A DNA stretch of 64,000 bases from an uncultured Ignavibacteria bacterium (lineage in GTDB: Bacteria > Zixibacteria > MSB-5A5 > SM23-73-2): the NCBI GenBank assembly GCA_964447175.1, contig CAYURP010000001.1, positions 78,208-142,207 of the forward strand, in the 5' to 3' direction. The position numbers were made by a program, and so were the translations under genes. Below, in pieces: positions 5,299 through 61,445 of the stretch (the first letter of the stretch is position 1; each line of letters starts with the position of its first letter). The notes under the pieces were generated by a model that saw nothing but the letters and a program-made list of their open reading frames with translations, did no database searches and was not told the DNA's origin.

Positions 5299-5310
5299 AG
5301 TAGGCGGAGA

Positions 5311-6492: not shown

Positions 6493-6507
6493 TTCAAAAA
6501 AAAGGAG

Positions 6508-7422: not shown

Positions 7423-7438
7423 ATTAAGAGGATTTCAT

Positions 7439-9898
7439 ATGTCAAAAAAAGACAAAAAGAAATTAAAGCCTACAAAAGCTTCAAAACCAAGTTTTTGGGA
7501 AGCCGAAAAATTTAAAAAATATTTTCCGGTTATTCTGTTTATGGTTTTAGCCCTGATTCTTTTCTCTCAGTTTGTTTTCTCTAATCAGATGCTTTTCGGA
7601 ACTGATACCATTGAAGCTGGCGTAATGTTTAGATCATTTTACGCTAATTTCGTTAAGCAGTATCACCAGATACCCATGTGGGAACCCTATCTTTTTGGTG
7701 GCATGCCTTTTGTGGATGCCATGCACGGGGATACCTTTTACCCTCTGGCGCTTTTGCAGTTTGTTCTGCCCCTGCATAAAGCCCTGGGATGGAAGCTGGT
7801 TATTACCGTCTTTCTGGCAGGGATTTTCACCTATCTTTGTTTAAGGGCTTTTGGTTTCAGCCGGGGGATCTCAATCTTAGGTGGATTAGCTTATATGTTT
7901 TCAGCTAATCTGGTTTCCTGGGTCTACGGAGGACAGGATGGCAGGATGTATATCACCAGCCTTTTGCCTCTTTTATTTTTCTTTTTGGAAAAGAGTTTGA
8001 ACACCAAAAGATTTATATATTATCTGTGCCTGGGGATTTCCATTGGCCTTTTGATTTTAGCCAATCACCCTCAATTGGCTTATTATGCTTTGTGGGCATT
8101 AGGTCTTTATTTTCTTTTCAGATTAATTTTACAATTCAAGGACTCAGAAGAGAAAAGCTTTGTACCCCAAATAAAACCTCTTTTAAAGCCAATTTTGTTA
8201 TTTATTATTTCGGTTATAATTGGTTTGGCTTTGTCTTTGATCCAGATACTGCCTCCTTATATCTATGTCAATAAATACTCTCCTCGGGCAGAAGGAGCAA
8301 GGGGTTATGAGTATGCCACCTCCTGGTCCTCCCATCCCGAGGAATTAGCATCACAGATTGTGCCCGAATTCTGCGGCTATAATCTAACAGACCAGTCCAC
8401 CTATTGGGGCAGAAATCCCTTCAAACAGAACTCCGACTATGGGGGAGTGGTTCCGTTGTTTTTTGCTTTCTTAGCTTTGTTTTTGGTCAAGGATAGAAGG
8501 ATCTGGTTCTTTTTGGGGCTTTCCATTTTAGCCATAATCTATTCCCTGGGGGCGCATACCCCGGTTTACAGGCTTTTTTACTGGCTGGTTCCCCAGGTGA
8601 AAAATTTCCGGGCACCGTCTTTGATTATGTTCCTTTTGATTTTCTCTGTGGTATTTTCAGCCTGTTTTGGCCTGCAGAGGATTTTGAGTGGAATAAAATC
8701 ACAAAACGAACAGAAAAAGCTTTTAACGGTAATTATGAGTGTGGTGATCCTTTTTGGGATTTTGGCATTTCTTTTCACCATCGGAGGGGAGGTTATGCTC
8801 TCCATCTGGAACGGGATTTTATACTCTAACATTTCTCCTCCTAAGAAAGCCTCTATGTTACAGAACCTGCCCAACATTCAAAGGGATTTCTGGTTGATCT
8901 TTTTCTTTATAGGTACAACTGCAGCAGCGTTGTACCTTTTTATTAAAGGGAAATTAAAAACCACAGTTTTTATCATCTGGATAGGTGCTCTTGTGGTGAT
9001 AGATCTGTGGAGGATAGATCTCAAGTTCATAGAGAATTTTGATTACTTTAGCAATTTTAGAAAGAATCAGGTTGTGGATTTTCTAAAAAAGGATCAGGAT
9101 CGATTTCGAGCCCTGGTCTTACCAGGGACTTTGAAAGGTCAGAATTTCATGGCTTTATTCGATATTCCCCAGGTCTTTGGGTATCATGGGAACCAGTTGA
9201 AAAGATATGATGAGTTTACCGAAAGGGGATATCGGGAAAAAGCCACCACCCAGAGGGAGTATTATGACCGTTACTCTCAGTTTATTTTCGGTCCCAAACC
9301 GGATCTTTTAAATGTGAAATATCTTCTTTCAGGAGCTGATTTCTCTCACCCTAAATTCCAGAGGGTATATCAAGGCGATGGGCTTTTCGTGTTTCAGAAT
9401 ACCCAATATCTGCCCCGGGCCAGAATCGTCTTTGCATACGAGGTGATTGAGGATGATGAGAAAATCCTGGAAAGGCTTAAGGATCCTGAGTTTGATCACA
9501 TTAATAAAATTATCCTCGAGAAGACTCCTCAGAATATTCTTTCTGAGGGTGACACAATTGGAGTTTTGGGATCAGCTGAAATCATTGAGGATAACATAAA
9601 TAATTTCACTGTCAGGGCAGAATTGTCCCATCCCGGTTTTCTGGTTTTAAGCGAGAACTTCTATCCTGCCTGGAAAGCCTTTGTGGATGGGAAAAAGACA
9701 GAAATCCTCCAGGCTAACTACACCTTCAGAGCAGTCTTTTTGGATGAAGGTGAACATCAGGTAAGATTGGTTTATGATTCACCGTACTATGGACTTGCGA
9801 AAAATGTTAGTGGCATAAGTATCCTTTTCGTATTTTTTGTATTGATTCTCGGGTTTGTGAAAAAACCTCTTTACCGAAGGAATTTGGATAAAAAATGA
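7439..9898 (+). CDS. Large YfhO-like polytopic membrane protein. It has an N-terminal multi-TM region and a C-terminal soluble domain. Putative glycan/lipid transferase.
   Basis: 819 aa with about 13 predicted TM helices followed by a beta-rich domain of about 300 aa. It sits in a glycosyltransferase cluster. Confidence 0.5.
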   Translation: MSKKDKKKLKPTKASKPSFWEAEKFKKYFPVILFMVLALILFSQFVFSNQMLFGTDTIEAGVMFRSFYANFVKQYHQIPMWEPYLFGGMPFVDAMHGDTFYPLALLQFVLPLHKALGWKLVITVFLAGIFTYLCLRAFGFSRGISILGGLAYMFSANLVSWVYGGQDGRMYITSLLPLLFFFLEKSLNTKRFIYYLCLGISIGLLILANHPQLAYYALWALGLYFLFRLILQFKDSEEKSFVPQIKPLLKPILLFIISVIIGLALSLIQILPPYIYVNKYSPRAEGARGYEYATSWSSHPEELASQIVPEFCGYNLTDQSTYWGRNPFKQNSDYGGVVPLFFAFLALFLVKDRRIWFFLGLSILAIIYSLGAHTPVYRLFYWLVPQVKNFRAPSLIMFLLIFSVVFSACFGLQRILSGIKSQNEQKKLLTVIMSVVILFGILAFLFTIGGEVMLSIWNGILYSNISPPKKASMLQNLPNIQRDFWLIFFFIGTTAAALYLFIKGKLKTTVFIIWIGALVVIDLWRIDLKFIENFDYFSNFRKNQVVDFLKKDQDRFRALVLPGTLKGQNFMALFDIPQVFGYHGNQLKRYDEFTERGYREKATTQREYYDRYSQFIFGPKPDLLNVKYLLSGADFSHPKFQRVYQGDGLFVFQNTQYLPRARIVFAYEVIEDDEKILERLKDPEFDHINKIILEKTPQNILSEGDTIGVLGSAEIIEDNINNFTVRAELSHPGFLVLSENFYPAWKAFVDGKKTEILQANYTFRAVFLDEGEHQVRLVYDSPYYGLAKNVSGISILFVFFVLILGFVKKPLYRRNLDKK

Positions 9899-13179: not shown

Positions 13180-13983
13180 ATGAGCTGGTTTTCGCTTCAA
13201 AGTTTAAGATTGAAAAAGTTTCGGTACCTGGGGATTTTCTTATTCTTTTCTTTTTTACTTCTGATTCTACCCCAGAGGGGGAAACTTTTTATCTCTGAGA
13301 CCATTCTTCAATATACCTATTCGCCCTTTTTCAAATTCAGTCAAAAAATCAAGCAGCTCTCTAATGTCTATGAGGAAAATAAGAAACTGCAAAAGGAAAA
13401 CGTGAGGTTGATTCTGGAAAACCTGAGATTGGAAGAGGAGGGTCTGGAAAACGAAAGGTTGCGGGCTCTTCTGGATTTCAAGTCCCAGATAGATTATAAT
13501 GTAATCCCGGGTGAGGTAGTGGCACTGGAACCTAACCGTAGAAGTAATTCCGTTTTGATCAGCGTGGGTAAAGATGACGGTGTGAAAAAGCATCTGCCAG
13601 TTATCAATATGCACGGGTTGGTGGGTAAGGTAGTAGAAGTATATCCTAAAAATTCCCTGGTGGAGCTGCTCTCGGATCCTAACTGTCGGGTAGCAGCTTT
13701 GATCAAACGGAGCAGGGTTCACGGGATTGTAAAGCAACAGAAGGGTACAAACCTAAGTCTGGATAACGTACCTTCCGGTGCGGATGTGAGGCAAGGGGAT
13801 GAGATTATCTCCTCGGGCCTGGGAGGTGTTTTCCCCCAGGCTTTGAGAATTGGAACCGTGGTGAAAACCGAAGACAGCAAGACCTCAATTTTTAAACACA
13901 TTCAAGTTCAGCCGTATGCAGATTTCAATTGTCTTGAGGAGCTTTTCGTTATAGAGGTTACCAAAAGCGAGTTAAACCAGTAA
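13180..13983 (+). CDS. mreC: Rod shape-determining protein MreC.
   Basis: N-terminal TM plus coiled coil, then 'GLVGKVVEVYPKNSLVELLSDPNCRVAALI'-type beta domains. Followed by mreD-mrdA-rodA. Confidence 0.85.
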   Translation: MSWFSLQSLRLKKFRYLGIFLFFSFLLLILPQRGKLFISETILQYTYSPFFKFSQKIKQLSNVYEENKKLQKENVRLILENLRLEEEGLENERLRALLDFKSQIDYNVIPGEVVALEPNRRSNSVLISVGKDDGVKKHLPVINMHGLVGKVVEVYPKNSLVELLSDPNCRVAALIKRSRVHGIVKQQKGTNLSLDNVPSGADVRQGDEIISSGLGGVFPQALRIGTVVKTEDSKTSIFKHIQVQPYADFNCLEELFVIEVTKSELNQ

Positions 13984-14526
13984 TTGAGGTGGCCTGTGTT
14001 CTGGAATAATATTAGTTATTTGAAGATCATAAGAGGAGCTTTAATCCTTTTTGTGGTGGTGATATTTTTAAGCTTTTTCTCCGAGCCTCTGCGGGTGGCA
14101 AACGTGAAACTGGATTTGCCCCTTTTTTTAGTGGTGTACGTAGGTCTGACCCGGGGTACCAAGGAAGGTATCGGTATTGGATTTTTGATCGGGCTTTTGG
14201 TTGACGTCCTGAATCCGTCTTTTTTGGGCTTAAATACTTTAATCAAAACCATCCTGGGTTATCTGGCCGGGAATTTCAAGGACAATCTTTTTCTGGAGCC
14301 GATTCATTTCAAGGGGCTGGTAATTTTCTTGGCCTTGATATTCAATGATTTGATATATTATCTGATCCGCTCGGGATTTGATCTTCCAGCAACATTGGGA
14401 ATAATCTTTTTTACCTCGATTCTATCAGGAATCTATACCTCCGGCGTAGGGATGCTGGTGTTTTTCATCAACCAACGTTTTAAGTTAAGGATAGCTTTCG
14501 AAAATGGAGCTTCTAAACCAGAATAA
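13984..14526 (+). CDS. mreD: Rod shape-determining protein MreD (TTG start; the start is uncertain).
   Basis: 180 aa with 5 TM helices, in the conserved position between mreC and mrdA. Confidence 0.6.
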   Translation: MRWPVFWNNISYLKIIRGALILFVVVIFLSFFSEPLRVANVKLDLPLFLVVYVGLTRGTKEGIGIGFLIGLLVDVLNPSFLGLNTLIKTILGYLAGNFKDNLFLEPIHFKGLVIFLALIFNDLIYYLIRSGFDLPATLGIIFFTSILSGIYTSGVGMLVFFINQRFKLRIAFENGASKPE

Positions 14527-16294
14527 AGACAAAAGAAGCAAGATCATTTACTATCTTTTTTTCGTGGTTTTATTTGTTTTTGTGCTCAGGTTGTACTATC
14601 TCCAGGTAGTCAAGGTCGCATATTACAAAAAGATATCCGAGAAGAACTGCATAAGGCCGGTTTCTTTGATTTCTCCCCGGGGTATGATTTCCGACAGAGA
14701 CGGTCGGATAATGGTTTCCAATTTTCCATCCTATACTCTTTTGATCATGCCAGGAGAGGTGGAAAACCTGGAGAAAACCATTAACCAATTGAGCTTATTT
14801 ACCGGAGTTGAGGGAACAGATCCTTTAGAGAAGGTAAAGAAAAGCCGCTCCTATACCTATCAGCCTATCCGGGTGGCTCGGTATGTGGACTTTCCCACCC
14901 TGTGTATGGTGGAGGAAAGAAACGAGGAACTGCTAGGTATATTTTATCAGGTGGAGCTTAACAGAAAATACCCGGAGTCTAACTGGAGCGGCCCTTTATT
15001 GGGATATGTTGATGAGATCTCGGTGGAGGAGCTGAAAAAAACTGAGTATCAAGTGAACATACTGGGGGATCTGGTGGGTAAGGAGGGGTTGGAGAGTCAG
15101 TATGAGGATCTCCTCAAAGGACAGAAGGGAACCCGCTATATGGAGGTGAGCGCTACCGGCAAACTGATGGGTGAGTTGGAGGACAAAAAACCTGTGATGC
15201 CAGTCCCCGGCTCTAATCTGGAACTAACCATTGATCTGGGTCTACAAGCCTTCGCAGAATCATGCTTTTATCCCTACAGGTCCGGGGCTTTGATAGCTAT
15301 AGACCCAAGAAACGGGGAGATTTTAACCCTTTTGAGCAAGCCGGGATTTGATTCCAACATCTTCACCGGAGTTATCACCCAGAAGGAATGGCAAAGACTG
15401 GTTTCCGACCCTAACCTTCCCTTTTTGAATCGGGTGATTCAGGGACTTTATCCTCCCGGGTCAATTCTTAAGCTTCTGACTGCTGGTGCTGCTCTTGAAG
15501 AAAGAATAATCGACCAGAATACCACCTTCTCGTCATGTTACGGTTTTTATCCATATGGAGATCGGATATTTCGATGTTGGAATGAGGGAGGACATGGAAA
15601 GTTGAATTTGATCGATGCCCTGGCCCAATCCTGCGACATTTATTTTTATCAGCTGGGATTGGAATTAGGCCTGGAGAAATGGAGCGAATATGCGGAGAAG
15701 TGTGGATTAGGAAAAAAGGTGTGGATCGACCTGCCCGGCGAGAAAGGGGGTTTAGTGCCTACCCTGGAGTATTACCACAAAAAATATGGAAAGGCGAGAT
15801 GGGTAAGAAATCTGATAATAAACCTGTCCATCGGGCAAGGGGAGATCATGCTCACCCCGATTCAGGTTACTGCATTCTACTGCGGCCTGGTCAATGAGGG
15901 ATGGGTATTTCAGCCTCATCTTTTGAAGAGGATAATTTCCGATGGCAAAAAAATCACACCTGAACCTGAGGTTCTGCGGAGATTGCCTTTCTCCACTGAA
16001 ACCCTAAGGATTTTGAAAAGGGCTATGATAAAAGCAGTGGAGCATCCTCTGGGAACTGGTCACCTGGCTCGGATTTCAGGAATAGAGATGGGCGGCAAGA
16101 CCGGCACTGCTCAGAATCCCCACGGTGAGGACCATTCCTGGTTTGTGGGGTTTGCTCCAGCTGAAAAGCCGGAGATTCTGGTAACCGTTCTGATTGAAAA
16201 TGCCGGTCACGGAGGGGATGTGGCAGCACCTGTGGCCAGAGAGATTATTCTTAAATACCTGCAAAAGAACTACAAACAACTAGCGGGAAAATAG
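14504..16294 (+). CDS. mrdA: Penicillin-binding protein 2 (peptidoglycan D,D-transpeptidase MrdA).
   Basis: N-terminal TM and dimerisation domain. The transpeptidase has 'SILK' (SxxK), 'SxN' and 'KTGT'. Gene order is mreCD-mrdA-rodA. Confidence 0.9.
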   Translation: MELLNQNKDKRSKIIYYLFFVVLFVFVLRLYYLQVVKVAYYKKISEKNCIRPVSLISPRGMISDRDGRIMVSNFPSYTLLIMPGEVENLEKTINQLSLFTGVEGTDPLEKVKKSRSYTYQPIRVARYVDFPTLCMVEERNEELLGIFYQVELNRKYPESNWSGPLLGYVDEISVEELKKTEYQVNILGDLVGKEGLESQYEDLLKGQKGTRYMEVSATGKLMGELEDKKPVMPVPGSNLELTIDLGLQAFAESCFYPYRSGALIAIDPRNGEILTLLSKPGFDSNIFTGVITQKEWQRLVSDPNLPFLNRVIQGLYPPGSILKLLTAGAALEERIIDQNTTFSSCYGFYPYGDRIFRCWNEGGHGKLNLIDALAQSCDIYFYQLGLELGLEKWSEYAEKCGLGKKVWIDLPGEKGGLVPTLEYYHKKYGKARWVRNLIINLSIGQGEIMLTPIQVTAFYCGLVNEGWVFQPHLLKRIISDGKKITPEPEVLRRLPFSTETLRILKRAMIKAVEHPLGTGHLARISGIEMGGKTGTAQNPHGEDHSWFVGFAPAEKPEILVTVLIENAGHGGDVAAPVAREIILKYLQKNYKQLAGK

Positions 16295-16317
16295 AACCTT
16301 TTTTCATTCTGGAACCG

Positions 16318-17538
16318 ATGCGTCTTCAGTGGAAAGATTTTGATTACTGGCTTTTACTGGCTGCGTTTGTCCTTTCCTTAATCGGGATTTTTTTGATCTT
16401 CAGTTCAAAATATTATTCCACCAACCCATCGGAACATAACTTATATCTGAAGCAGGCTTTGTGGCTTGTTTTCGGGCTTTTAGCAGGGGGGGTGTTTTTT
16501 TTCATACCACTGAGATTTCACGATGCCTTCTCCTATCTTTATTATTTTCTGGTCTTGGCTTTTTTGGGGTTGCTTATCCTGTCCGGGACAAATCAAATGG
16601 GCGCAGCTCGCTGGTTCAGGTTGGGCTGGATAAACCTCCAACCATCAGAATTTGCCAAGCTGGCTTTTGTGTTCGCTCTGTCCCGATATCTGAGTTACAC
16701 CAAAAAGCCAATATACAGCTCTAAATGGTTATTAACTATTGTTCTTATGGTTTGCCTGCCAGCTGCCCTGGTACTGAAGCAACCGGATCTGGGAACCTCT
16801 TTGGTCTTTTTTGCTCTGTTTTTTTCTATTCTTTTTTGGGCCGGGGTTCCGGTTCTTTTTCTCATTGTTTTGGTGTCTCCATTATTGAGCCTGGTGTGTG
16901 GATTTCACTGGTTCACCTGGGCTGCGTTTTTTCTGGGATTCCTTCTGCTGCTCTATTATCTCCGTCCTGGTTTGGTTTTCGGGGTGGTTATGATCTTGCT
17001 TAATTTCGCTGTGGGAACCGTTACCCCCCTAATATGGAACCGACTTCATGATTATCAAAAGCTCAGGATTTTAACCTTTCTGGACCCGGGCAGGGATCCC
17101 CAGGGTGCTGGCTATCAGATACTTCAGTCCAAAGTAGCTATCGGATCAGGAGGAATTCTAGGCAAGGGATTTCTACAGGGCTCCCAGACCAAGCTGGCAT
17201 TTTTGCCAATGCAACACACTGATTTCATCTTCACCGTAGTGGGCGAGGAATTGGGACTATTGGGTGCTCTGGTGGTCTTAGCCTTATTCACTTTCCTTAT
17301 TGTCAGGGGGATTATAATCGCCAAAAAAGCAAGAAACAACTTTGCCAGCTTTACCGCCATAGGGATAACAACTATTTTTGCCTTCCAGATGCTGGTCAAC
17401 ATTGGAATGGTTTTAGGGATCATGCCGGTTACCGGATTGCCTTTGCCCTTCTTAAGTTATGGTGGTTCATCCATGCTTTTATCATGGATTGGGGTGGGAT
17501 TGCTGCTGGCGATTGGCTATAAATGGTACGAATATTGA
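16318..17538 (+). CDS. rodA: SEDS-family peptidoglycan glycosyltransferase RodA.
   Basis: 10 TM helices and the FtsW/RodA C-terminal motif 'GLPLPFLSYGGSSML'. Confidence 0.9.
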   Translation: MRLQWKDFDYWLLLAAFVLSLIGIFLIFSSKYYSTNPSEHNLYLKQALWLVFGLLAGGVFFFIPLRFHDAFSYLYYFLVLAFLGLLILSGTNQMGAARWFRLGWINLQPSEFAKLAFVFALSRYLSYTKKPIYSSKWLLTIVLMVCLPAALVLKQPDLGTSLVFFALFFSILFWAGVPVLFLIVLVSPLLSLVCGFHWFTWAAFFLGFLLLLYYLRPGLVFGVVMILLNFAVGTVTPLIWNRLHDYQKLRILTFLDPGRDPQGAGYQILQSKVAIGSGGILGKGFLQGSQTKLAFLPMQHTDFIFTVVGEELGLLGALVVLALFTFLIVRGIIIAKKARNNFASFTAIGITTIFAFQMLVNIGMVLGIMPVTGLPLPFLSYGGSSMLLSWIGVGLLLAIGYKWYEY

Positions 17539-17583
17539 TTTTATTTTTTTCTGACTTTGTAAGCAGAAAGTGAGTAGAGTAAG

Positions 17584-18384
17584 TTGCATTCCGTTGTGTT
17601 TAAAATAGGGCCCGTGGTGGTAAGAAGCTACGGTCTTTTATTATCCATCTCCTTTGGTCTGGGTTTATGGCTGGCGCTTGTCCGAGCTAAAAAATGGAAC
17701 ATAAAACTTGATCTGGTCTTAGATCTTTTCCTTATTATTTTGCTCTCCTCTGTTTTCGGGTCAAGATTTTTTTACGTTATATTTCATCTGGACGAGTTTA
17801 TAGGACACCCCTGGGATATGATTAACCCGGTTCAAAGCTCAGGGGAGCTGGGCATTGCCGGACTGTCAATGGTAGGAGGTGTGGTTTTGGCTGTGGGTTT
17901 TGGCATACTCTATCTTTTCATGAAAAAAGAGAACGTGTGGAAGGTGGCGGATATTCTCTCCCCCTCCTTTATGCTGGGGTTGGGAATAACCAGGATCGGC
18001 TGCTTTTTGAACGGATGCTGCTTTGGAAAACCCACCCATTCCTGTGTGGGCGTGGTCTTTCCCTACGATTCAGCTGCCGGGTATTTCTACCCTGAAACTG
18101 CAATCTATCCCACCCAGCTTTTTTCGTCTGGGGCAGGTTTTCTGATACTTTTTCTTTTGGTCTGGGGGGAGAAATATAAAAAATTCGATGGTTTCACCTT
18201 CTGGTTGATGCTTTTTCTTTTTTCTCTGCAAAGGATAATCATCGACTTTTTCAGATATTACGAAACCGAAATGGTTTTTCTCTCAGTGAGAGAAATTAAC
18301 ATCTCCATAAACCAGGCTGTCCTGGTGCTGGTTGCACTTTTCTCAATTTTTGCCTGGAATTACATGAGAAAGAAACAGGTTTAG
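17584..18384 (+). CDS. lgt: Prolipoprotein diacylglyceryl transferase.
   Basis: 'VRSYGLLLSISFGLG' and 'RIGCFLNGCCFGKPT' are Lgt signature motifs. Confidence 0.85.
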   Translation: MHSVVFKIGPVVVRSYGLLLSISFGLGLWLALVRAKKWNIKLDLVLDLFLIILLSSVFGSRFFYVIFHLDEFIGHPWDMINPVQSSGELGIAGLSMVGGVVLAVGFGILYLFMKKENVWKVADILSPSFMLGLGITRIGCFLNGCCFGKPTHSCVGVVFPYDSAAGYFYPETAIYPTQLFSSGAGFLILFLLVWGEKYKKFDGFTFWLMLFLFSLQRIIIDFFRYYETEMVFLSVREINISINQAVLVLVALFSIFAWNYMRKKQV

Positions 18385-18403
18385 ACCTCATAGATGAATT
18401 AAT

Positions 18404-19150
18404 GTGATTACAAAGGAAATTTTAAAGATAAGGGATGCAGCAGCAGGTCTTAAGAGAGCAATTATTGATTTTGTATTGCCACCGCATTGCATAATTTGCA
18501 GCAACTATCTTTCACCTGAGGAGAGAATTATCTGCGATGTTTGTTGGGAGAATATGTCCATCCTGCCATCACCATTTTGTCCTGTTTGTAAGAATTTTCT
18601 GGAGCAAGGGAATCTTTTTTGTAAAATTTGTACAGAAAGGAAACTTCTCTGTGCTGTGAGGTCTTTGGGTGTGTTTGACAGTTATTATCAAAAGATGATT
18701 CACGGATTTAAATACCAACAAAAAATGACTTTGGGTCAGAGATTAGGGAAAAGATTAGGAGAAAAGCTGATAGATGATAAGTTGGTTTCCAGGTTCGATT
18801 GTATAATCCCTGTGCCTTTGCATCCAGCCAGAAAAAGGGAGAGAGGATTCAACCAGAGCCAGATCTTAGCTCAGGAATTATCAGAGGCAATCCATATACC
18901 AGTACTGAAAAAAGTCCTGAAGAGGACAAGAAACACCAAAGATCAAACCAAGTTAACTCCTGAGGAGCGTATACAGAACGTAAAAGGCGCATTTGCACTA
19001 AAGGGTCCAGAGGCAATCGAAGGTAAAAGAATAATCTTAGTGGATGATGTAATGACCACCGGCGCAACATTGGGAGAGTGTGCCAGGGTTCTTTCAGAAG
19101 CAGGGGCAAAGCAGATTATGGGCGTCACCATAGCAGTAGCTTTAATCTGA
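18404..19150 (+). CDS. comF: ComF-family protein (double zinc ribbon plus phosphoribosyltransferase domain). GTG start.
   Basis: N-terminal CxxC x4 and the C-terminal PRTase motif 'ILVDDVMTTGATL'. Confidence 0.8.
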   Translation: MITKEILKIRDAAAGLKRAIIDFVLPPHCIICSNYLSPEERIICDVCWENMSILPSPFCPVCKNFLEQGNLFCKICTERKLLCAVRSLGVFDSYYQKMIHGFKYQQKMTLGQRLGKRLGEKLIDDKLVSRFDCIIPVPLHPARKRERGFNQSQILAQELSEAIHIPVLKKVLKRTRNTKDQTKLTPEERIQNVKGAFALKGPEAIEGKRIILVDDVMTTGATLGECARVLSEAGAKQIMGVTIAVALI

Positions 19151-19315
19151 GTTAAAATCGTTAAACGTTATCCGTGATTCGTTATTCGAATTACTATTGC
19201 GTCTTCGATTTGAATTATTATATTATTATAGAAGTTGACTTCATGGTAACACAAGTTGTTTAAACTTGTGCTATCACAGGTTGGGACAACCTATGATACC
19301 GAGGGAAAGTCTTGA

Positions 19316-19385
19316 CGGAGAGATGTCCAGGTTTGGTCGAAGGAGCCGCGTGCTTGTCCCGCAATATGCGGGAGAGAGCTTGAAA
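19316..19385 (+). pseudogene. Degenerate tRNA-Ser-like fragment. The 5' half resembles the adjacent tRNA-Ser, but there is no T-arm.
   Basis: 'GGAGAGATGTCCAGGTTTGGTCGAAGGAGC...' is about 85% identical to the first 36 nt of the tRNA at 19445. It then diverges into an unrelated hairpin. Confidence 0.35.
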
Positions 19386-19444
19386 AAAAAGAGGTGAAAA
19401 AACATAGATTGTAATTAAAAGCATATCTTTGTAAGAAAAGCTAC

Positions 19445-19533
19445 GGAGAGATGTCCGAGTTGGTCGAAGGAGCACGCCTGGAGAGCGTGTAGCCCCCAAA
19501 AGGGGCTCCTGGGTTCGAATCCCAGTCTCTCCG
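19445..19533 (+). tRNA. tRNA-Ser (anticodon GGA), class II with a long variable arm. CCA is not encoded.
   Basis: The cloverleaf was folded by hand. The acceptor is GGAGAGA/TCTCTCC. The anticodon stem is CACGC/GCGTG with loop CTGGAGA. The variable arm is 'TAGCCCCCAAAAGGGGCTCC' and the T-loop is GGGTTCGAATCCC. Confidence 0.9.
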
Positions 19534-19562
19534 CTTCATTTTCTAATTTTTACTTGACAAGG

Positions 19563-19650
19563 ACTTATCACCTTGTTCCACCGTGATCATGAATGGACAT
19601 AAGATCTTTTCTAAGTTGACTCCCGAGAATGTATCCACTTCAATCCCTGA
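19563..19650 (-). pseudogene. Truncated paralogous copy of the 3' end of the PKD-protein gene. It encodes '...IEVDTFSGVNLEKILCPFMITVEQGDKS' and lies directly next to the tRNA.
   Basis: About 85% nucleotide identity with 19768-19845, the C-terminal coding end of the 19731..20843 gene. Confidence 0.5.
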
Positions 19651-19730
19651 TTTTTGTCAATAAAACGGGAATGTAGTATTAATATTAGATATTCCAAGTA
19701 CTAGACTTCAACCTTTGCGTCTTCTGTCGA

Positions 19731-20843
19731 TCAGTTTACCCATCTAACGCCATCAACGTAGAAGGTTTTATCACCTTGTTCCACTGTGATCATGAATGGG
19801 CAGAATATCTTTTCCAAGTTAGCTCCCGAGAATGCATCCACAGGAATACTTATCTCCTGCCAAGTGCTGTCTCCGTCCCATCCATGGTCAGCGAGGTAAA
19901 CTCTGAATTTACTACCGTATCTACTATAGTGCTGTATCTCAATCTTCATAATTTCTGCTGTCTTCACCCAGAACTTAAGATAAGCATAAGCTGATAAGTC
20001 TACCGTATGGTCTGAAGGTTGGTTGAGGAATACACCCCAACCTGCATAATTCTTCTTATTTCCCCAGTTTGGACCACTTTTCGTCTTAAAACATGTGTAT
20101 CCTTCAGGAGCATTCTCACCTGTATAGCTTGGGTCGAACAAAGCTTCCGGTCCTCCCCAATCTTCTCCACTCCAAATCCAAATCTCACCGTCATCACGGT
20201 CACCCAAGTCATTATAGATAGTATAATCGCAAGTGAGAGTTATGTTCTGTGAGACAGTATCTTTTGCTCCATCATTATCAGCGACAATGAGAACAACCTC
20301 ATAGCTTCCTGCTACTGCGTATTGATGACTTGGATTCTGGATGCTATAAAGTGAATCATCGCCAAAGTTCCACTCCCAGATCACAATTTCTCCGTCGTCA
20401 TCCGCTGATTCATCTGTGAACTTCACTGCGCAACCATTGGTGGAACAGACAAAAGCAGCTATAGGAGGGCGATTTATAATGTCTACAGTGTCTAAGTAAC
20501 TACCTGTGGCTCCATCGTTATCAGTGACAGTAAGACATACTTCAAAAGTTCCGACACTCACATATCGATGGGTGGGGTTTTGAGCTGTAGATACCGATCC
20601 ATCACCGAAATTCCAGTGCCAATCAGTAATTTCTCCGTCTGGATCTGTGGACTGGTCAACAAATTGGACTTCTCGTAAGTTGGTCGAGTAAGAAAAAGAA
20701 GCAATTGGGGGGTTGATTTCAGGTTCGGTCGATTTTTTGGAACACTGAAAATTCATAACAACTCCAAGGAACCCAATAATCAAGATAACCGATGTCTTGT
20801 AAATCTTTTGTTTCTCCATTTTTATCACTCCTCGTATCATCAT
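19731..20843 (-). CDS. Lipoprotein with two PKD domains and a C-terminal CBM-like beta-sandwich domain.
   Basis: Signal peptide plus Cys. Two repeats of 'W.WNFGDGS....NP.H.Y...G.YEV.L.V.DNDGA'. The C-terminal domain is homologous to the C-terminus of the adjacent GH17 protein. Confidence 0.75.
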   Translation of the reverse strand: MMIRGVIKMEKQKIYKTSVILIIGFLGVVMNFQCSKKSTEPEINPPIASFSYSTNLREVQFVDQSTDPDGEITDWHWNFGDGSVSTAQNPTHRYVSVGTFEVCLTVTDNDGATGSYLDTVDIINRPPIAAFVCSTNGCAVKFTDESADDDGEIVIWEWNFGDDSLYSIQNPSHQYAVAGSYEVVLIVADNDGAKDTVSQNITLTCDYTIYNDLGDRDDGEIWIWSGEDWGGPEALFDPSYTGENAPEGYTCFKTKSGPNWGNKKNYAGWGVFLNQPSDHTVDLSAYAYLKFWVKTAEIMKIEIQHYSRYGSKFRVYLADHGWDGDSTWQEISIPVDAFSGANLEKIFCPFMITVEQGDKTFYVDGVRWVN

Positions 20844-22498
20844 TTTTTTCTTTTTTGGAAATTTTGACTTAAGGAGAATTCAAATGGTATCACACCCTCT
20901 CTGCAACCAATACCTGTAGTAATAGTTATACCCTCGACTACAATCTCATCAAGATAAATTGTACTTCCATTAGGATTTTGATTATAATTTGTAACCCAAC
21001 AAAATCCACCTATAACCATGCTGAGGTCTTTTCCTGTCAAGTTAAGCGAGCATCCTTTCCATTCATTTGTCAATGTAATTACACCAGTCGAAATAGGCCC
21101 ATAAGAATCCAAATAATCAAGTGTAGGATCATTAATTCCTCCTGTTTTAAACTCTACTTTTTCTCCTCCTTCTTTTCCCTTTGCCCAAAAACTGAGTTTT
21201 ACGGAATCATATCTAGCTAATGAATTGGAAAAATCATAACCAGGGTATTTACCCCAATTATTGACTGGAAACTGCCAATAAATTCCACCCCATTGAGCGG
21301 GAGAAGGTGAATATGAAATTCGAATACAAGTCTCACCAGAATGAGGATTATCAGTAGATAATTCATCTATTATCTCAGTAGGGTTTGCAGAGGTTGAATC
21401 ATCACCTATGTAATGGGCGAGTTCGCCCATCCAGCCACTAGAAAAAAATCCGTTCAATGGATCACATCCATCATTATAAACATACAATGGTAGAGTAGTT
21501 TCTGTAGGATTCACTACTCTGGGGGCTCTGTTTATTCCATTTTGTGCAGACTCAGGGATTAAATCTTTTAATTGTGGTTTTGGTGAACCATTGGAAAAAT
21601 ACATTCCCCAGTGACTTCCGGCCTCTCCTTCCAATTTGCTTTTCCATTCTTCATCAAATATTTCAAAATAAAAATAGTCAATCTTATTACTATCAGCCAT
21701 AGAGATAAAATCAGAAAGATATCTCTTCTGGTTTTCCTCGCCTGGAATTGCGTTACTACGTTTTTCACCTTTCGACGGCCAACCGGTCTCGCCAATGATA
21801 ATCTTCTTATTTGGATAACTTGTTTTTAATTCATTCCATTTTTCTAATACGTAATTAGCGCCTTCTTCAACCGCTCTACCCTCCCAATAAGGGTAAATAT
21901 GAACCAATAGAACATCTACTGCTTGTGCTAATTGAGGGTGGTCAAGCCAATAATTCCATATTTCAGCTGTGGCGACGGGCAGATTTGTAGTGTTTTTTAC
22001 TTCTGAAATAAAATCTAGTAGTTGTTGTTCAGAAAGATCGTTTCTTAACAAAACTTCACTACCGACAATCAAACCTTTCACATGACTTAAATTCTGATTT
22101 GCTATATTTATCAAACTATTTATTTGCCTTGCATTTTCACATTCATATTTTGAAATCCACGCTCCAGGATAGCAGTCAATTCCATACTCCTGACATAGAG
22201 AAGGTATTTGCTCCAAATTATCCGTAGTTCCATATGTGCGAATGGAGACTGCCAAATTCTTAATAAAAGCGATATCTTCGGTAAACTCGCTGATAGTGGG
22301 GTGAATGCCGCAATCCGGATCCTCATTGTCGCGATATGGTCCATAACATAGTCCTAAAAATTTTTCATTTTCTGGTTTAGGCCCATTTCTATTTGGTTCT
22401 GGACCCTTTTTCGTGCACTCAAGCAATAATAGTGAAAGAGTAATAAAAGCGATTATTAACGAAACAGGCAATAGTTTAGTTCTGTATATCTTTCCCAT
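20840..22498 (-). CDS. Glycoside hydrolase family 17 (beta-1,3-glucanase/glucanosyltransferase) with a C-terminal CBM-like domain.
   Basis: 'HIYPYWEG' and 'KIIIGETGWPSKGE' match GH17 catalytic-region signatures. Signal peptide. The C-terminal domain of about 180 aa is shared with the PKD protein. Confidence 0.7.
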   Translation of the reverse strand: MGKIYRTKLLPVSLIIAFITLSLLLLECTKKGPEPNRNGPKPENEKFLGLCYGPYRDNEDPDCGIHPTISEFTEDIAFIKNLAVSIRTYGTTDNLEQIPSLCQEYGIDCYPGAWISKYECENARQINSLINIANQNLSHVKGLIVGSEVLLRNDLSEQQLLDFISEVKNTTNLPVATAEIWNYWLDHPQLAQAVDVLLVHIYPYWEGRAVEEGANYVLEKWNELKTSYPNKKIIIGETGWPSKGEKRSNAIPGEENQKRYLSDFISMADSNKIDYFYFEIFDEEWKSKLEGEAGSHWGMYFSNGSPKPQLKDLIPESAQNGINRAPRVVNPTETTLPLYVYNDGCDPLNGFFSSGWMGELAHYIGDDSTSANPTEIIDELSTDNPHSGETCIRISYSPSPAQWGGIYWQFPVNNWGKYPGYDFSNSLARYDSVKLSFWAKGKEGGEKVEFKTGGINDPTLDYLDSYGPISTGVITLTNEWKGCSLNLTGKDLSMVIGGFCWVTNYNQNPNGSTIYLDEIVVEGITITTGIGCREGVIPFEFSLSQNFQKRKK

Positions 22499-22534
22499 AG
22501 CTTACTTTCCTTTTTTGATATAAGATTCAAGATG

Positions 22535-23839
22535 TTATTCCGAGTTGAATAACTTGGTTAAATTCAACCTCAAGGATGGGAGGACTTCATTCGATTGCTG
22601 TAGAGACAGAGGAATGCTAAAAGCTTCCTGATATTCTGTATAAACAAATCTAAACTGAAGACCAAATCTAATTGATTTTGTAAAAGCTCCTTCGATATCG
22701 AAGCCAGCAAAAAATTCCGTTTCCTTTAACTCCCCTAAATCGAATGTTGTCTCCTTTTGCCTCTCATTAAATCGATGCCAGCCTTTTTCCGCTTCTAATG
22801 AAATTTTATCAGGTAGCAACAAGTTTGTCCCTCCCACCAGGTGGAAAATAGCTTGTTTGTTTTTCCCGAAATAGAAAACCGGATAGGTGATATATATTGG
22901 CAGACTAAAGCTATTTTCATCAATGAAAGATCGGTTCTTAGACCTTACTAAATAATAGATCAGCGCATCTCCTCCAGGGGAACCTTCTTTGATATAACTT
23001 TTTCTATAAAGATTTTCGACTTCTATTACTTCCGAACCTTTTATTTCAGAGGTTTGGATGGCAATATTTAAAATTCCCCAAAAACGAAAATGAACATCAA
23101 GACTAGTTCTATGCTCTAAGGCAAAATGTACGGTATTTTCAATAATAAGATAATTATCTGGATTATTAGGATCTAGGATATCATCGGGTCGATACTTCAC
23201 ATCATCAGGGTGTGGACGACCGGTTCTTATATTACTTGGTATATTGCCGAGACTTACTTGATCGCCCTTTCGATATCCAAAGCCAAATCCAAACCCAAAT
23301 CTTATGCCTTCAATTTTACCCAACAGTTTTTTTGCTAATTGGTGAATTTTTTCATCCGCCTTGTCTATTTCAGTTGTAGAAAATGTTATGTTTTTCTCTG
23401 TAATAATAGAATTATTTAATACATTAATAGCTTTGGCTTTAAATTCGATTTTCCTACTACCCTCCGAATCGATTTTTGTTATGATGATTGTTCTAACCTG
23501 CTCAGATATACTTTTTTTGATACCATCAAGCACTGTTGATGGCTCGTCATCATAACTTATTACTGATAATATTCCGGTTAAGCTTGAATTAGGTAGGAAT
23601 ATCAAATCAGAAAGATTTATTAATTCAAGCTGCAAATCTTCCGGGAATTTCTCGGGGAAATTTGTATGGTAATGCGTTTCTAAGATATTCTGAACACTCC
23701 TATCTAATCCTTGTGAAATCTCCGCTGAAGGAAGCATTACAATTGGAGAATTAAAGCTGTTTAATGTACGGCCGAAAACCGTTTTCGAGCTCAGAAGGAT
23801 CAAGTAAACTAACAGAATTAAGCGAGTTTTGGATTTCAT
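22535..23839 (-). CDS. Secreted hypothetical protein (signal peptide; Gly-Phe repeat 'GFGFGFGYRKGD').
   Basis: Codon-consistent ORF in the same operon as GH17. No family recognised. Confidence 0.4.
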   Translation of the reverse strand: MKSKTRLILLVYLILLSSKTVFGRTLNSFNSPIVMLPSAEISQGLDRSVQNILETHYHTNFPEKFPEDLQLELINLSDLIFLPNSSLTGILSVISYDDEPSTVLDGIKKSISEQVRTIIITKIDSEGSRKIEFKAKAINVLNNSIITEKNITFSTTEIDKADEKIHQLAKKLLGKIEGIRFGFGFGFGYRKGDQVSLGNIPSNIRTGRPHPDDVKYRPDDILDPNNPDNYLIIENTVHFALEHRTSLDVHFRFWGILNIAIQTSEIKGSEVIEVENLYRKSYIKEGSPGGDALIYYLVRSKNRSFIDENSFSLPIYITYPVFYFGKNKQAIFHLVGGTNLLLPDKISLEAEKGWHRFNERQKETTFDLGELKETEFFAGFDIEGAFTKSIRFGLQFRFVYTEYQEAFSIPLSLQQSNEVLPSLRLNLTKLFNSE

Positions 23840-23854
23840 TTTTCGATTTCCACT

Positions 23855-24565
23855 CTAATCTCTTCGTTTAAAATGAGATTTCTCTACAGATTTCTCTGAT
23901 GCTGGCCCTTCAAAAATTATGCTATCACTAAATTCCCATGTTGTTACTGCCTTATCTGTATATTCTATTCTTAAATTGTAAACACCTTCTTCAGCTCTCA
24001 GCTTAAAGTTATTTTTCTTACCTTGAGCTTTTAATGTGTCATTTAGGAATATTTTAAAATCAGGTATCTGATATACAAAGTCAGAAAGATCAATAATAAC
24101 CTCATAAGTTCCCAGTGGCTCCCCTGTTAAACTATCAATTAAACTATTAGGGCGTTTATTTTCTTCTCTGAGGTTGTTGAGTTCATTATTGGTGGTTTGA
24201 AGGTCTTGTTTTAAGGAATTGATTTCTTGCGTTTGGCTGTTAATTTCCTTATTCAAATCTTGCTTCTCCTTCTCTAAACGAACTATCTTGCCTGACAAAG
24301 CCTTTCTGCTTTCGGTTAACGTCTTAATTTCGTTATCACGTCGTTGGATTATCTCATCGATGCTTACCGCCCACTTATGAGTGGAGTAACCCGCCCAAAA
24401 AAGTGCATTAAAGATTCCGAATATAGCTGCCCACCTTTTTAAGGTTGACCAAATTGTCTTTTCAGATTGTGGCCGATCGTCAACATCGGGAATTGCATTC
24501 TGAGGTTCTTTTTCTCTCTTTGTTGGCTTGGTAGAATTGTCAGAATGTTTTTTAGATTTTTTCAT
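23855..24565 (-). CDS. Membrane-anchored coiled-coil protein (hypothetical).
   Basis: Charged N-terminus, one TM ('WAAIFGIFNALFWAGY'), a heptad-rich segment of about 80 aa, then a C-terminal beta domain. Confidence 0.4.
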   Translation of the reverse strand: MKKSKKHSDNSTKPTKREKEPQNAIPDVDDRPQSEKTIWSTLKRWAAIFGIFNALFWAGYSTHKWAVSIDEIIQRRDNEIKTLTESRKALSGKIVRLEKEKQDLNKEINSQTQEINSLKQDLQTTNNELNNLREENKRPNSLIDSLTGEPLGTYEVIIDLSDFVYQIPDFKIFLNDTLKAQGKKNNFKLRAEEGVYNLRIEYTDKAVTTWEFSDSIIFEGPASEKSVEKSHFKRRD

Positions 24566-24794
24566 AGATGCCCTGATATTCTTAAATTAGAATATTCTGT
24601 CTGCATTTTTTTGCTAATAACTATTCTTATACAGTTCCGCATAAGAACCTTTGGATGCTGAATCTGCTGTATAAATACCTCGGAGAGCACCGTAAAAATC
24701 GATAACTCCAACAAATCTAATGGCTTTTTTCTCATACATGCAATCTGTCTGGCGGTTTATTCAGTCTTTATAAACTACCACCTGATTATACCGT

Positions 24795-25010
24795 TTATAG
24801 GTTGTCCGCTGGGTTTATCACCACCTTACTGTCGTGTTTAAGAATATGGGTGTAAATCATCGTCGTCTTGCGCTTTCTGTGCCCAAGCAGTTCCTGAACT
24901 GTTCGTATGTCATAACTACCTTCCAGCAAATCGTCTGAGAATAGTGCTCACATGTGTTATAGTTTGCAAGCTTGCTGAAGTCGTGTTTACGCCCAGTATG
25001 CTCACTTGGC
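24795..25010 (-). pseudogene. Tyrosine recombinase/integrase remnant. Only the C-terminal catalytic tail is intact. The upstream part is frameshifted or deleted.
   Basis: The minus-strand translation is '[48 protein letters not shown]' (intact over 24795-24947). It contains the box II/Tyr motif 'RTVQELLGH...TTMIYTHV'. The preceding 'H.LRH' box is present only out of frame ('[14 protein letters not shown]'). No N-terminal domain is present. Confidence 0.6.
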
Positions 25011-25250
25011 TTACCCGCATTCTGTTATTTCTTTTTCTTTTTTCAGCTTTATATTAAGCTATCTCTGTCCATAAGTCAAGAAAAAAGCCACCGACTACGG
25101 CATTTTTTGTGACCATTTTGTGCCATCTTCAAGTCAAAACAACTCAAAATAACTAAAAACAACTCTAAACAACCATAAAAGACAAATTTCTGAGTGTTGA
25201 GCTGTTAGCACCTAATTTGCTATTAGATAGTAGGTTACAGAATCTCCCCT

Positions 25251-25274
25251 GTTCGAATCCCAGTCTCTCCGCTT
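25251..25274 (+). repeat. Direct repeat of the tRNA-Ser 3' end (attR-like). It is 24/24 identical to 19513-19536.
   Basis: 'gttcgaatcccagtctctccgctt' is present both inside the tRNA (T-loop to acceptor) and here, 5.7 kb downstream. Confidence 0.65.
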
Positions 25275-25447
25275 TTTGATTCTGTTATTTTTTAGATGAA
25301 TGAGCATTAGGAAATTTCAGTATAAAGCTTCGGGAATTCCTATTCCCGAAGCATCTGATATTAGATTACTAAAAATTCTTGACATGACCCTATGTGAATG
25401 TTTTTTTTAATCTGTGGTTGAACCTTAACCAAAAAAGGAGTGTAGAA

Positions 25448-26260
25448 ATGAAAAGCACCTTCAGTAAATCTATTATTATGATTTTATTGTTTGCCTGTGT
25501 TTTCTGGATTAACTGTGGAAAGGATAAGTCTGTGGATTCAGGTGACACGGTTGATAACACAAATTTTATCGCAGAAAGGTCTTTTTCCTATCAGGTGGAT
25601 GTGGTAGACCATTCCCAGCTCAGCCTGGAGGCTATAAATGGTAATATTAAGATTACGGGAATGTCTGGCTCCGACTCGGTTATTATTACAGGCATAAGAA
25701 GAGTTGGCTCGGAAAGCACCCAGGATGCCGAAGAGCACCTGCAGCTGCTTGAGGTAAGTGTAGAGGATTTGGGGAACAAAATCCTGGTAAAAACCCTTCA
25801 ACCCGAAAAGTCGTACGGCCGGAGCTATCAGGTTAATTATACCATAACACTGCCAAAAGATTTAAAGGTTTTGGTAAGCAGTGTCAATGGAAACGTTACC
25901 CTTGATTCAATAGATAATGATGTCATAGTGAGCAATGTGAACGGAACGATCACATTGAATGAAATCTACGGAAGTGCATTTGTATCATTAATCAATGGTG
26001 GAATCGATGGTGAAATTACAATGCCGCAGGATGGCGTGATACAGATGAGTGTGGTCAACGGAAATATTGTTCTAAACATACCAGTTGAAACCTCTGCAGA
26101 ATTTGCAGCCGGGATTACAAACGGGAATATTGTTGTTTCCAATCTTACCCTTCAAAACCAGGTAGTTACAAGCTCTTCCCTTAACGGTACACTTGGCGAT
26201 GGAAAAGGCACGATCTCGGTTATAACGGTTAATGGTAATATAAGTGTGTCGGGATTTTAA
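25448..26260 (+). CDS. Lipoprotein with repetitive beta-helix-like 'VNGNI' repeats (DUF4097/putative adhesin-like).
   Basis: Signal peptide plus lipobox 'WINCGKD'. More than 8 repeats of '(V/I)NG.I.L'. The annotated ORF start at 25394 is probably too far upstream. The ATG at 25448 is preceded by AGGAG. Confidence 0.6.
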   Translation: MKSTFSKSIIMILLFACVFWINCGKDKSVDSGDTVDNTNFIAERSFSYQVDVVDHSQLSLEAINGNIKITGMSGSDSVIITGIRRVGSESTQDAEEHLQLLEVSVEDLGNKILVKTLQPEKSYGRSYQVNYTITLPKDLKVLVSSVNGNVTLDSIDNDVIVSNVNGTITLNEIYGSAFVSLINGGIDGEITMPQDGVIQMSVVNGNIVLNIPVETSAEFAAGITNGNIVVSNLTLQNQVVTSSSLNGTLGDGKGTISVITVNGNISVSGF

Positions 26261-26501
26261 TAGATCACCCATTTTGTGTAAGCTATCTTTTGTCATTGTT
26301 TCCGATTTTGGCTCTCCAATAAACTAAACCATCCCTTTTTACGTATATTTTTTTACTGTATAATTGAACCTTCTGCTGGTTGGTCTGGCGGGAGGAGGTT
26401 ACCCTGATTTAGATTTGAAAAATATGTTTTTTTTCCATTTCAAATAAGTAGCTTTTGACTAAGAATCTAATTGGTTAACATTAAAGAGTTTGGAGGATGA
26501 T

Positions 26502-61354: not shown

Positions 61355-61445
61355 AAAATTCCTTGATTTCGGTTTTATAATTGCTATTATTCAAAATGTG
61401 ATTTTTACAACTAAAAGCTATGAACTATTGACTATGGACCATCAT

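Follow-up and report, generated by a model that had tools for sequence, protein, structure and literature searches.

How did a tRNA gene in an uncultured bacterial lineage come to be followed by a low-GC block of four oppositely oriented envelope genes, at whose far end the last nucleotides of the same tRNA are found again? We examined this question in a stretch of 64,000 nucleotides (hereafter the window, 64 kb) comprising positions 78,208 to 142,207 of the forward strand of contig CAYURP010000001.1 (assembly GCA_964447175.1), from a bacterium deposited as uncultured Ignavibacteria and assigned by GTDB to Zixibacteria. A preceding sequence-only reading had described a decayed integrative element at a tRNA-Ser(GGA) gene, with a cargo module directed at beta-1,3-glucan. 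On the evidence presented below, we interpret the region with good confidence as the fossil of an integrative genomic island in the chromosome of a member of the Zixibacteria.

The tRNA-Ser site in the window and in a relative

The tRNA-Ser(GGA) gene at the left end of the region is intact (coordinates of all features are collected in Table 1). Its last 22 nt and the two bases that follow make up the 24-mer GTTCGAATCCCAGTCTCTCCGCTT, which recurs exactly at the right end. Only these two copies (19513-19536 and 25251-25274) were found in the window, both with exact matching and with up to three mismatches allowed, and none occurred in 100 shuffles of the window. When imperfect similarity is included, the direct repeat reaches 31 nt at 90% identity. 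The repeat of the tRNA end reported by the sequence-only reading thus stands, and no sign of a generic repeat was seen within the window. Upstream of the right copy, alignment to the tRNA-Ser gene was no better than chance, as expected if this sequence is an attP arm. Within the tRNA, the repeat begins at the 5' strand of the T stem and reaches the 3' end, a stretch that is among the crossover sublocations classically used by tRNA-targeting integrases (Williams 2002). A whole-window Rfam scan at the gathering threshold returned only a tRNA-Ala and a signal recognition particle (SRP) RNA and missed the tRNA-Ser at 19445-19534; a local scan scored the gene at 53.4 bits. The long variable arm of this tRNA probably led the filter of the whole-window scan to discard it.

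For comparison, one genome per species was scanned with the ComF-like protein encoded just upstream of the tRNA (18404-19150). The scan yielded one close relative, contig JBARPA010000347 (hereafter L001) of a Candidatus Zixiibacteriota metagenome-assembled genome (MAG), whose ComF is 82% identical in amino acid sequence. In L001, comF is followed by tRNA-Ser(GGA), which aligns with the gene in the window without differences, and then directly by 'TTTTTGATTCTGTTATTTTTTAGATGAATGAGC...', which in the window comes immediately after the right repeat. This is the empty tRNA-Ser site that the sequence-only reading had proposed to look for, with the two flanks joined at the repeat, and it excludes that the cargo genes are conserved in synteny beside tRNA-Ser across the clade. 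Relative to L001, the distance between the tRNA and its original downstream flank is larger by 5,738 bp in the window. This additional sequence between the repeats is therefore either an insertion at the tRNA or a segment precisely excised in the relative, and we infer that the event was an insertion. A metagenome scan with the ComF alignment for further relatives of the host locus matched 360 patterns, none of which encodes a relative.

Some minor elements of the flanks are also seen in L001. A hairpin with perfect 9-bp arms (CTTCGGGAA TTCCTA TTCCCGAAG, window 25327-25352) lies about 55 nt 3' of the right repeat and is kept at 2598-2625 of L001; it is probably the original downstream element of the tRNA, now parted from it by the island. 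Directly after the comF stop codon, the heptamer TCGTTAT is repeated 4.4 times (window 19158-19188), and a similar repeat occurs at about 2372-2392 of L001.

The composition of the segment between the repeats also deviates from its surroundings. Its GC content (19537-25250) is 0.376 versus 0.437 in the rest of the window (z = -3.2), below that of all 94 non-overlapping 5.7-kb windows, and its tetranucleotide distance has a z of 2.2; both are deviations that the sequence-only reading had suggested checking. Between 4363 and 43063 (about 39 kb), no genes other than those of the island lie on the minus strand, and the GC skew switches sign across them. Taken with the empty site and the repeat, the GC and tetranucleotide deviations bear out the view of a horizontally acquired element at tRNA-Ser.

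The most likely explanation of these observations is the following course of events. A mobile element with an attP carrying 24 nt identical to the 3' end of tRNA-Ser(GGA) would have been inserted into the tRNA gene by a tyrosine recombinase. Integration would have rebuilt an intact tRNA at the left (attL) and left a displaced 24-nt 3' fragment at the right (attR). A deletion and a frameshift would then have destroyed the integrase, fixing the island, while the cargo operon would have stayed intact, read from a conserved leader and encoding four cell-envelope proteins.

Two further scars lie near the tRNA. The 3' end of the PKD-protein gene has an 80-nt pseudo-copy, encoding 'VDTFSGVNLEKILCPFMITVEQGDK', which starts at a distance of 22 nt from attL and which we interpret as a scar of rearrangement; a truncated second copy of this gene end had been noticed in the sequence-only reading and is indeed present, with 88% identity between 19559-19638 and 19762-19841. 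The same reading had described a degenerate 5' half of tRNA-Ser upstream of the intact gene. The part at 19317-19353 proved real, with an alignment score of 46 versus a best score of 23 in 300 shuffles and no tRNA call there by ARAGORN or Rfam, but the rest, up to 19385, is not tRNA-like. This pseudo-tRNA, which is followed by a CCCGC-AATAT-GCGGG hairpin, lies between comF and the tRNA in a segment of about 215 bp (within 19151-19444) that is absent from L001. Under the standard model, what integration displaces is the 3' part of the tRNA; this 5' remnant may instead derive from a tandem tRNA gene that has decayed, or from an older rearrangement.

About 80 bp inside the right repeat lies a 10-bp tandem repeat with the unit CAACTCAAAA, whose copies may be arm-type binding sites or low-complexity sequence. 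Two contigs from independent assemblies, L051 and L052 (Logan SRR9700688, JGI Ga0315537), are 100% identical to the island, and both end at about 25165-25175. Because these ends lie in or beside the 10-bp repeat, the contig of the window is the sole assembly that shows the right junction.

The recombinase remnant

Just inside the right junction, some 230-450 bp from attR, lie the last 75 or so codons of a tyrosine-recombinase gene on the minus strand. As the sequence-only reading had proposed, the in-frame part (24795-24947) consists of 50 open codons (24798-24947) and a stop, and it matches the Pfam Phage_integrase family with an E value of 3.6e-7 at profile positions 140-170 of 172. Box II (about 24948-24990) lies in another frame and is degenerate, reading 'STILRRFA' instead of HxLRHxFA, with the Arg kept and both His lost. 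Three-frame translations revealed no integrase-like sequence beyond about 25020, and no N-terminal or core-binding domain. Since about three quarters of the gene are missing, the recombinase is dead, in agreement with the earlier description, and an island with a truncated and frameshifted recombinase is not expected to excise on its own. The remnant is the only recombinase trace within the island; a tblastn search with an unrelated 300-aa integrase failed to recover even this known remnant and is uninformative about other recombinases.

The tail of the remnant resembles integron integrases (IntI), a likeness first proposed from the letters and supported here by profile searches. Among NCBIfam models, the integron integrase TIGR02249 scored 56.5 bits versus 43.4 for XerD and 42.5 for XerC, although the full-length cut-off of TIGR02249 is 265 and the part of the gene that would encode the IntI-specific extra domain is missing from the remnant. 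The alignment covers the C-terminal 58 residues (model positions 258-315 of 315), including the tail past the catalytic Tyr region. The closest database proteins are generic IntI-like C-termini with about 60% identity. When the reconstructed 73-aa fragment was used as query, 7,819 matches came out nearly equal at about this identity; short fragments ranked first, which probably reflects an effect of target length on scoring. No RYYYAAC...GTTRRRY (R''/R') pairs of the kind found in attC sites were present in 19000-26500, versus 0.86 expected by chance, matching the lack of attC-like sites in the sequence-only reading.

In the databases, many IntI-like C-terminal fragments of 50-130 aa are annotated as genes on contigs of up to 212 kb from sediment phyla (for example P0160, P0191, P0227 and P0228). 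One from Latescibacterota (P0233) has an internally deleted form in which an IntI N-terminal piece is joined to the C-terminus. Decayed IntI-like genes appear to be common in these lineages.

The cargo operon, its leader and its copies elsewhere

The cargo was confirmed as a minus-strand operon of four co-directional open reading frames (ORFs). They are tightly packed: two of the intervals measure 16 and 37 bp, and at the third the genes overlap by 4 bp. A search for phage families with PHROG matched only the coiled-coil protein among the cargo, with matches of the coiled-coil type; the integrase fragment matched PHROG integrase families. Neither a SusC-like TonB-dependent transporter nor a SusD-like protein was detected by Pfam or NCBIfam among the four products.

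The third gene encodes a 552-aa enzyme of family GH17, as the sequence-only reading had recognized from its motif, here IIGETGWPS. The Pfam PF00332 score is 60.8 bits versus a cut-off of 28.2. The protein has a lipoprotein-like N-terminal signal, a TIM barrel at about residues 45-330, a CBM30-like beta-sandwich at about 335-525 and a stub of a type IX secretion system (T9SS) sorting domain. Its AlphaFold2 (AF2) model (pLDDT 89, pTM 0.81) contains a (beta/alpha)8 barrel, and the C-terminal domain aligns with CBM30 1WZX at a Foldseek TM-score of 0.63, so that the proposed CBM-like domain was also recovered. The best match in sequence and structure is the beta-1,3-glucanosyltransferase RmBgt17A of Rhizomucor miehei (4WTP/4WTR), with an E value of 1.2e-33 for 4WTP over residues 47-309, 29% identity, a TM-score of 0.88 for 4WTR and a root-mean-square deviation of 2.0 A. 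The second sequence match in the PDB is the Formosa laminarinase 6FCG (E 5e-11), and the catalytic domain is nearer to the fungal enzyme than to this laminarinase (TM-score 0.60). Both catalytic residues, Glu148 and Glu237 (the latter in ETGWPS), are kept and are invariant in 38 homologs. RmBgt17A is a single-domain fungal enzyme, whereas the GH17 protein of the window is bacterial and adds the lipoprotein-type N-terminus and the CBM30-like domain.

The T9SS stub at the end of the GH17 protein reads 'IPFEFSLSQNFQKRKK' (window 20840-20920) and is shared, together with the lipoprotein-like N-terminus, by the subclade P0001-P0005. More distant homologs (P0012-P0018) keep a full T9SS domain. Judged from these termini, a switch in the secretion route may have taken place.

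The product of the second gene (434 aa) had been called a secreted protein, and this view has to be revised. In its AF2 model (18 homologs, pLDDT 84), a signal peptide is followed by an N-terminal alpha/beta domain and a C-terminal barrel of about 12 strands. Foldseek related the N-terminal domain to TolB and LpoB and the barrel to OmpA, OmpT, OmpW and Pla; the protein is accordingly predicted to be an outer-membrane beta-barrel protein. It had no match in Pfam or NCBIfam and none to TonB-dependent receptors. The family is small: a word-index search gave 23 homologs, and 1.84 billion representatives yielded 52 clusters at E <= 1e-3. It always stands beside GH17.

The first gene encodes a 236-aa membrane-anchored protein with a cytoplasmic tail and one transmembrane helix, followed by a coiled coil and then by a small C-terminal domain, probably a beta-sandwich. 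The fourth gene encodes a 370-aa protein in which the two proposed PKD domains were found as two stretches matching Pfam (PKD_4, E 7.4e-38), followed by a C-terminal domain of about 170 aa without a match to PDB or Pfam by sequence. This protein is a probable lipoprotein, as judged from a Cys after its hydrophobic N-terminal stretch. According to the sequence-only reading, the GH17 and PKD proteins share a CBM-like C-terminal domain. BLASTP did not detect such a domain (E 0.95), and a hidden Markov model (HMM) of the GH17 C-terminal domain did not match the PKD protein, although it matched the fourth gene of L044 at 4e-47. A weak signal came from hhalign, which aligned the two C-terminal domains collinearly over 119 columns (P 0.007, probability 5.6%). 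What the two proteins have in common by BLASTP is the lipoprotein-like N-terminus (E 2e-4). From the predicted domains, the cargo would most likely act at the cell surface, where it would capture laminarin or other beta-1,3-glucans and cut or transglycosylate them, with the products passed through the outer membrane.

Upstream of the operon lies a conserved non-coding leader. It contains a 9-6-9 palindrome, TTCTTATGC GGAACT GTATAAGAA (24624-24647), which is present in a single copy in the window and has the form TTCTTAT(G/A)C GGAACT GTATAAGAA across the leader family. Searches with nhmmer found copies with 82-87% identity (E down to 6e-21) in L040, L046, L053 and, twice, L054; those in L053 and L054 precede unrelated genes (ORFs of 355, 427 and 647 aa). 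The leader showed no Rfam match and no covariation, and the leader of the window folded no better than shuffles, with no end-paired or attC-like hairpin (z = -0.7 and -0.9). It is probably a promoter with the operator of a dimeric regulator, the most economical interpretation, but it may instead be a recombinase core site. The similarity of L043 and L057 to the window starts just downstream of the palindrome. A clean crossover at the palindrome was considered and is weakened by L054_a, a diverged full-length leader paralog without a sharp breakpoint. In viral contigs, the palindrome gave two matches, both by chance and inside a coding region, and the att junction pattern gave none.

The trio of membrane protein, barrel and GH17 enzyme recurs in L040, L043, L046 and L057, and the fourth gene varies among dockerin, T9SS and PKD types. 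Orthologs of the 236-aa protein in L043 and L057 are 42-51% identical, and L040 and L046 hold analogous proteins with a transmembrane helix and a probable beta-sandwich, in L046 with a coiled coil and CarbopepD_reg_2. No tRNA was found on those of the contigs L040-L047 that were checked, and the neighbourhoods are all different. The nucleotide identities of the operon copies to the window (78-90%) bracket the 85.5% identity of the host backbone between the window and L001. The similarity is mosaic and fits horizontal spread with recombination. In L043/L044, an OLD-family ATPase/TOPRIM nuclease and a UvrD-type helicase follow the GH17 operon at 13917-17623; this pair, which is similar to the Gabija defence system, suggests a variable region.

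L040 keeps the counterpart of window 24605-24866, so that 22 codons of the integrase 3' end ('MMFYTYVLNCVDKWIRNQADCL') stand together with the non-coding leader and the operon; in L046, the leader is kept and the integrase stub is absent. Since the same arrangement of stub, leader and operon is found in L040 and the window, the integrase gene, the leader and the operon were linked before their dispersal, which supports the integrase belonging to the same mobile unit as the operon. The block of L040 in common with the window (3224-7502) is flanked by direct repeats of about 88 nt with about 93% identity (about 3089-3176 and 7537-7623). These repeats end at a TTGACA box, and a third partial copy lies at 9348-9369.

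Table 1. Features of the tRNA-Ser locus and corresponding segments in other contigs
Feature	Position in window	Strand	Position in other contig	Evidence or remark
Pseudo-tRNA fragment, tRNA-Ser positions 1-36 (acceptor 5' strand, D arm, start of anticodon stem)	19317-19353	+		Alignment score 46
tRNA-Ser(GGA), intact; integration target, attL side	19445-19534	+		ARAGORN; Rfam RF00005, 53.4 bits
Direct repeat, left copy; attL core	19513-19536	+		Exact repeat; T stem 5' strand to tRNA 3' end plus 2 nt
Pseudo-copy of PKD gene 3' end (80 nt, 26 codons)	19559-19638	-		88% match to 19762-19841
PKD-PKD protein, 370 aa; fourth operon gene	19731-20843	-		Pfam PKD_4
GH17 enzyme, 552 aa	20840-22498	-		Pfam PF00332; AF2; Foldseek
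Predicted outer-membrane beta-barrel protein, 434 aa	22535-23839	-		AF2 model; Foldseek
Membrane-anchored coiled-coil protein, 236 aa; first operon gene	23855-24565	-		Only coiled-coil-type matches in Pfam/NCBIfam
Conserved non-coding leader	24601-24734	-		nhmmer copies; alignments
Tyrosine-recombinase pseudogene, last ~75 codons	24795-25020	-		Pfam; three-frame translations
10-bp tandem repeat, 4.4 copies	25130-25173			Tandem Repeats Finder (TRF) score 60
Direct repeat, right copy; attR core, displaced tRNA 3' fragment	25251-25274	+		Exact repeat; host flank from 25275 matches L001
Segment shared with L001 (backbone)	16788-19143		L001 1-2350	BLAST, 85.5% identity
Segment shared with L001	19431-19536		L001 2439-2544	BLAST, 97% identity
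Segment shared with L001	25251-25383		L001 2521-2653	BLAST, 95.5% identity over 133 nt
Trio locus L040 (JGI 3300033489)	23290-20828			90% nucleotide identity
Trio locus L043-45 ('Bacteroidetes' MAG)	24244-20829			80% nucleotide identity (L043)
Trio locus L046-48 (JGI 3300032046)	23290-20928			87% nucleotide identity (L046)
Trio locus L057-58 (ENA)	24613-20924			78% nucleotide identity (L057)
Leader copy			L040 3353-3483	nhmmer
Leader copy			L046 3707-3833	nhmmer
Leader copy			L053 11-132	nhmmer
Leader copies			L054 2101-2204 and 668-776	nhmmer

Competing explanations and known systems

Several observations weigh against the region being a fossil island inserted by the enzyme whose remnant it carries. 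The right junction was assembled once, L051 and L052 stopping about 80 bp short of it, and the comparison with an empty site involves a single genome, L001. The remnant lies at the tRNA-distal end, which requires that the integrase gene lost at least 750 bp by deletion between about 25020 and attR. Its tail is IntI-like, and integron integrases are not known to target tRNA genes. Neither protein searches nor the junction scan of viral contigs found a live relative of the integrase or of the element. In L040, the stub and operon occur without a tRNA and within unrelated repeats of about 88 nt, and the stub may thus be a passenger linked to the operon. As for the cargo, a role in laminarin processing is read from homology, and the closest solved GH17 structure is that of a transglycosylase, not a hydrolase.

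Some of these points would also be explained if the island were real but the IntI-like stub were an older relic riding with the GH17 operon, the insertion having been made by another integrase, since deleted or acting in trans, or the occupied locus having been gained by homologous recombination. We consider this possible but rather unlikely. The shorter stub of 22 codons in L040, with leader and operon but with different flanking repeats and no tRNA on the contig, the leader without a stub in L046, the IntI-like rather than classical tRNA-targeting character of the stub and its tRNA-distal position would all be in keeping with a passenger. However, the stub is the sole recombinase trace in the island, its distance from attR is compatible with a simple internal deletion, and the difference between 75 and 22 codons is explained equally well if a single ancestral integrase decayed separately in two lineages. 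It is improbable, in our estimate, that the IntI-like integrase, the leader of about 130 nt and the palindrome form an undescribed site-specific module-exchange system of FCB-superphylum sediment bacteria, which would move whole multi-gene operons by analogy with integrons or the pdif modules of Acinetobacter plasmids, the GH17 operon being a module later carried into tRNA-Ser. The linkage of stub and leader in the window and L040, the leader before unrelated genes in L053 and L054, the mosaic boundaries near the palindrome (window versus L043 and L057) and the direct repeats of L040 would speak for it. A remnant of a chromosomal integron, with an IntI gene, co-oriented cassettes and the leader as an attI/attC-like site, is more doubtful still and in our view very improbable. 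It would draw on the best match of the tail to the integron-integrase model TIGR02249, on IntI-type N-terminal pieces borne by the closest database fragments, on the leader before unrelated genes and on the 9-6-9 palindrome, whose geometry resembles a tyrosine-recombinase core site. The absence of R''/R' pairs (none versus 0.86 expected) and of an end-paired hairpin or covariation in the leader argues against it, as do a packed four-gene operon, three genes of which are kept as a unit elsewhere instead of single-ORF cassettes, and the diverged L054_a, which marks the leader as a sequence family rather than a set of clean crossover breakpoints; integrons also leave the tRNA 3'-end repeat and the empty site unexplained.

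We give next to no weight to an assembly artefact, in which the 24-nt tRNA repeat would have served to join a chimeric MAG contig. The source genome was assembled from a metagenome and the identical contigs L051 and L052 stop before attR, but these contigs break in the 10-bp tandem repeat, not in the tRNA repeat. Moreover, two independent switches at the 24-nt repeat would be needed to produce both junctions, as would a pre-existing partial tRNA fragment after non-tRNA sequence, which would itself be an attR. There is hardly any chance, either, that the region is a decayed prophage or phage satellite. An integrase with a tRNA attachment site, and matches of its fragment to PHROG integrase families, are what such an element would show, but no phage structural, packaging or replication family occurs among the cargo, where PHROG matches are of the coiled-coil type, all four genes are envelope- or glycan-related, and junction scans of viral contigs were empty. 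We therefore retain the interpretation as a fossil integrative island, in which the remnant would be what is left of the integrase that inserted the element at tRNA-Ser.

Additive islands integrated at tRNA genes typically have short direct repeats (16-20 bp), fast-decaying mobility genes and a displaced tRNA fragment (PMC6917214). Like the additive islands catalogued by Islander (PMC6917214), the island described here is inserted at a tRNA 3' end, with the intact tRNA near one end and a repeat of its 3' segment at the far end, and it shares with them a GC content lower than that of the host, decayed mobility genes, niche-related cargo and an empty site in a relative. Its repeat of 24 nt is slightly longer. 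It differs from typical members in measuring only 5.7 kb, in retaining about 75 codons of an integrase that is tRNA-distal and has an IntI-like tail, and in its uncultured Zixibacteria host. The likeness to integrons is limited to the C-terminal 58 recombinase residues that score best against TIGR02249; unlike integrons, the island has no attI and no attC found in 19000-26500, carries a multi-gene operon with its own leader and is flanked by a tRNA-derived repeat. The understanding of tRNA-targeted islands is left unchanged by this locus, which matches the textbook additive tRNA island (PMC6917214).

The cargo can be compared with laminarin loci of marine Bacteroidota, which combine GH17, GH16 and GH30 enzymes with SusC/SusD (PMC6246565). 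Similarities are a predicted surface GH17 acting on the beta-1,3 main chain, PKD- or CBM-type surface proteins and an outer-membrane component. In contrast to those loci, the cargo has no SusC/SusD, GH16, GH30 or regulator and encodes instead an inner-membrane coiled-coil protein and a small barrel of a rare family whose N-terminal domain is TolB-N/LpoB-like. The trio of a GH17 enzyme with a CBM-like domain, a rare outer-membrane barrel and a membrane-anchored coiled-coil protein thus appears as a portable unit that moves between sediment genomes and may provide a SusC/SusD-independent way to handle beta-1,3-glucan, although substrate and partner roles are predicted here from domains and models. 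Through both junctions, the empty site and the decayed integrase, the locus documents the horizontal gain of a carbohydrate-active operon in the uncultured phylum Zixibacteria. Three features are of modest interest in their own right: the stub with its IntI-like tail, the barrel family, which is rare and tied to GH17, and the leader that recurs in other contigs. Far from the island, at the right end of the window, lie a tRNA-Ala(CGC) gene (61445-61519) and a large bacterial SRP RNA (62005-62271, 181 bits).

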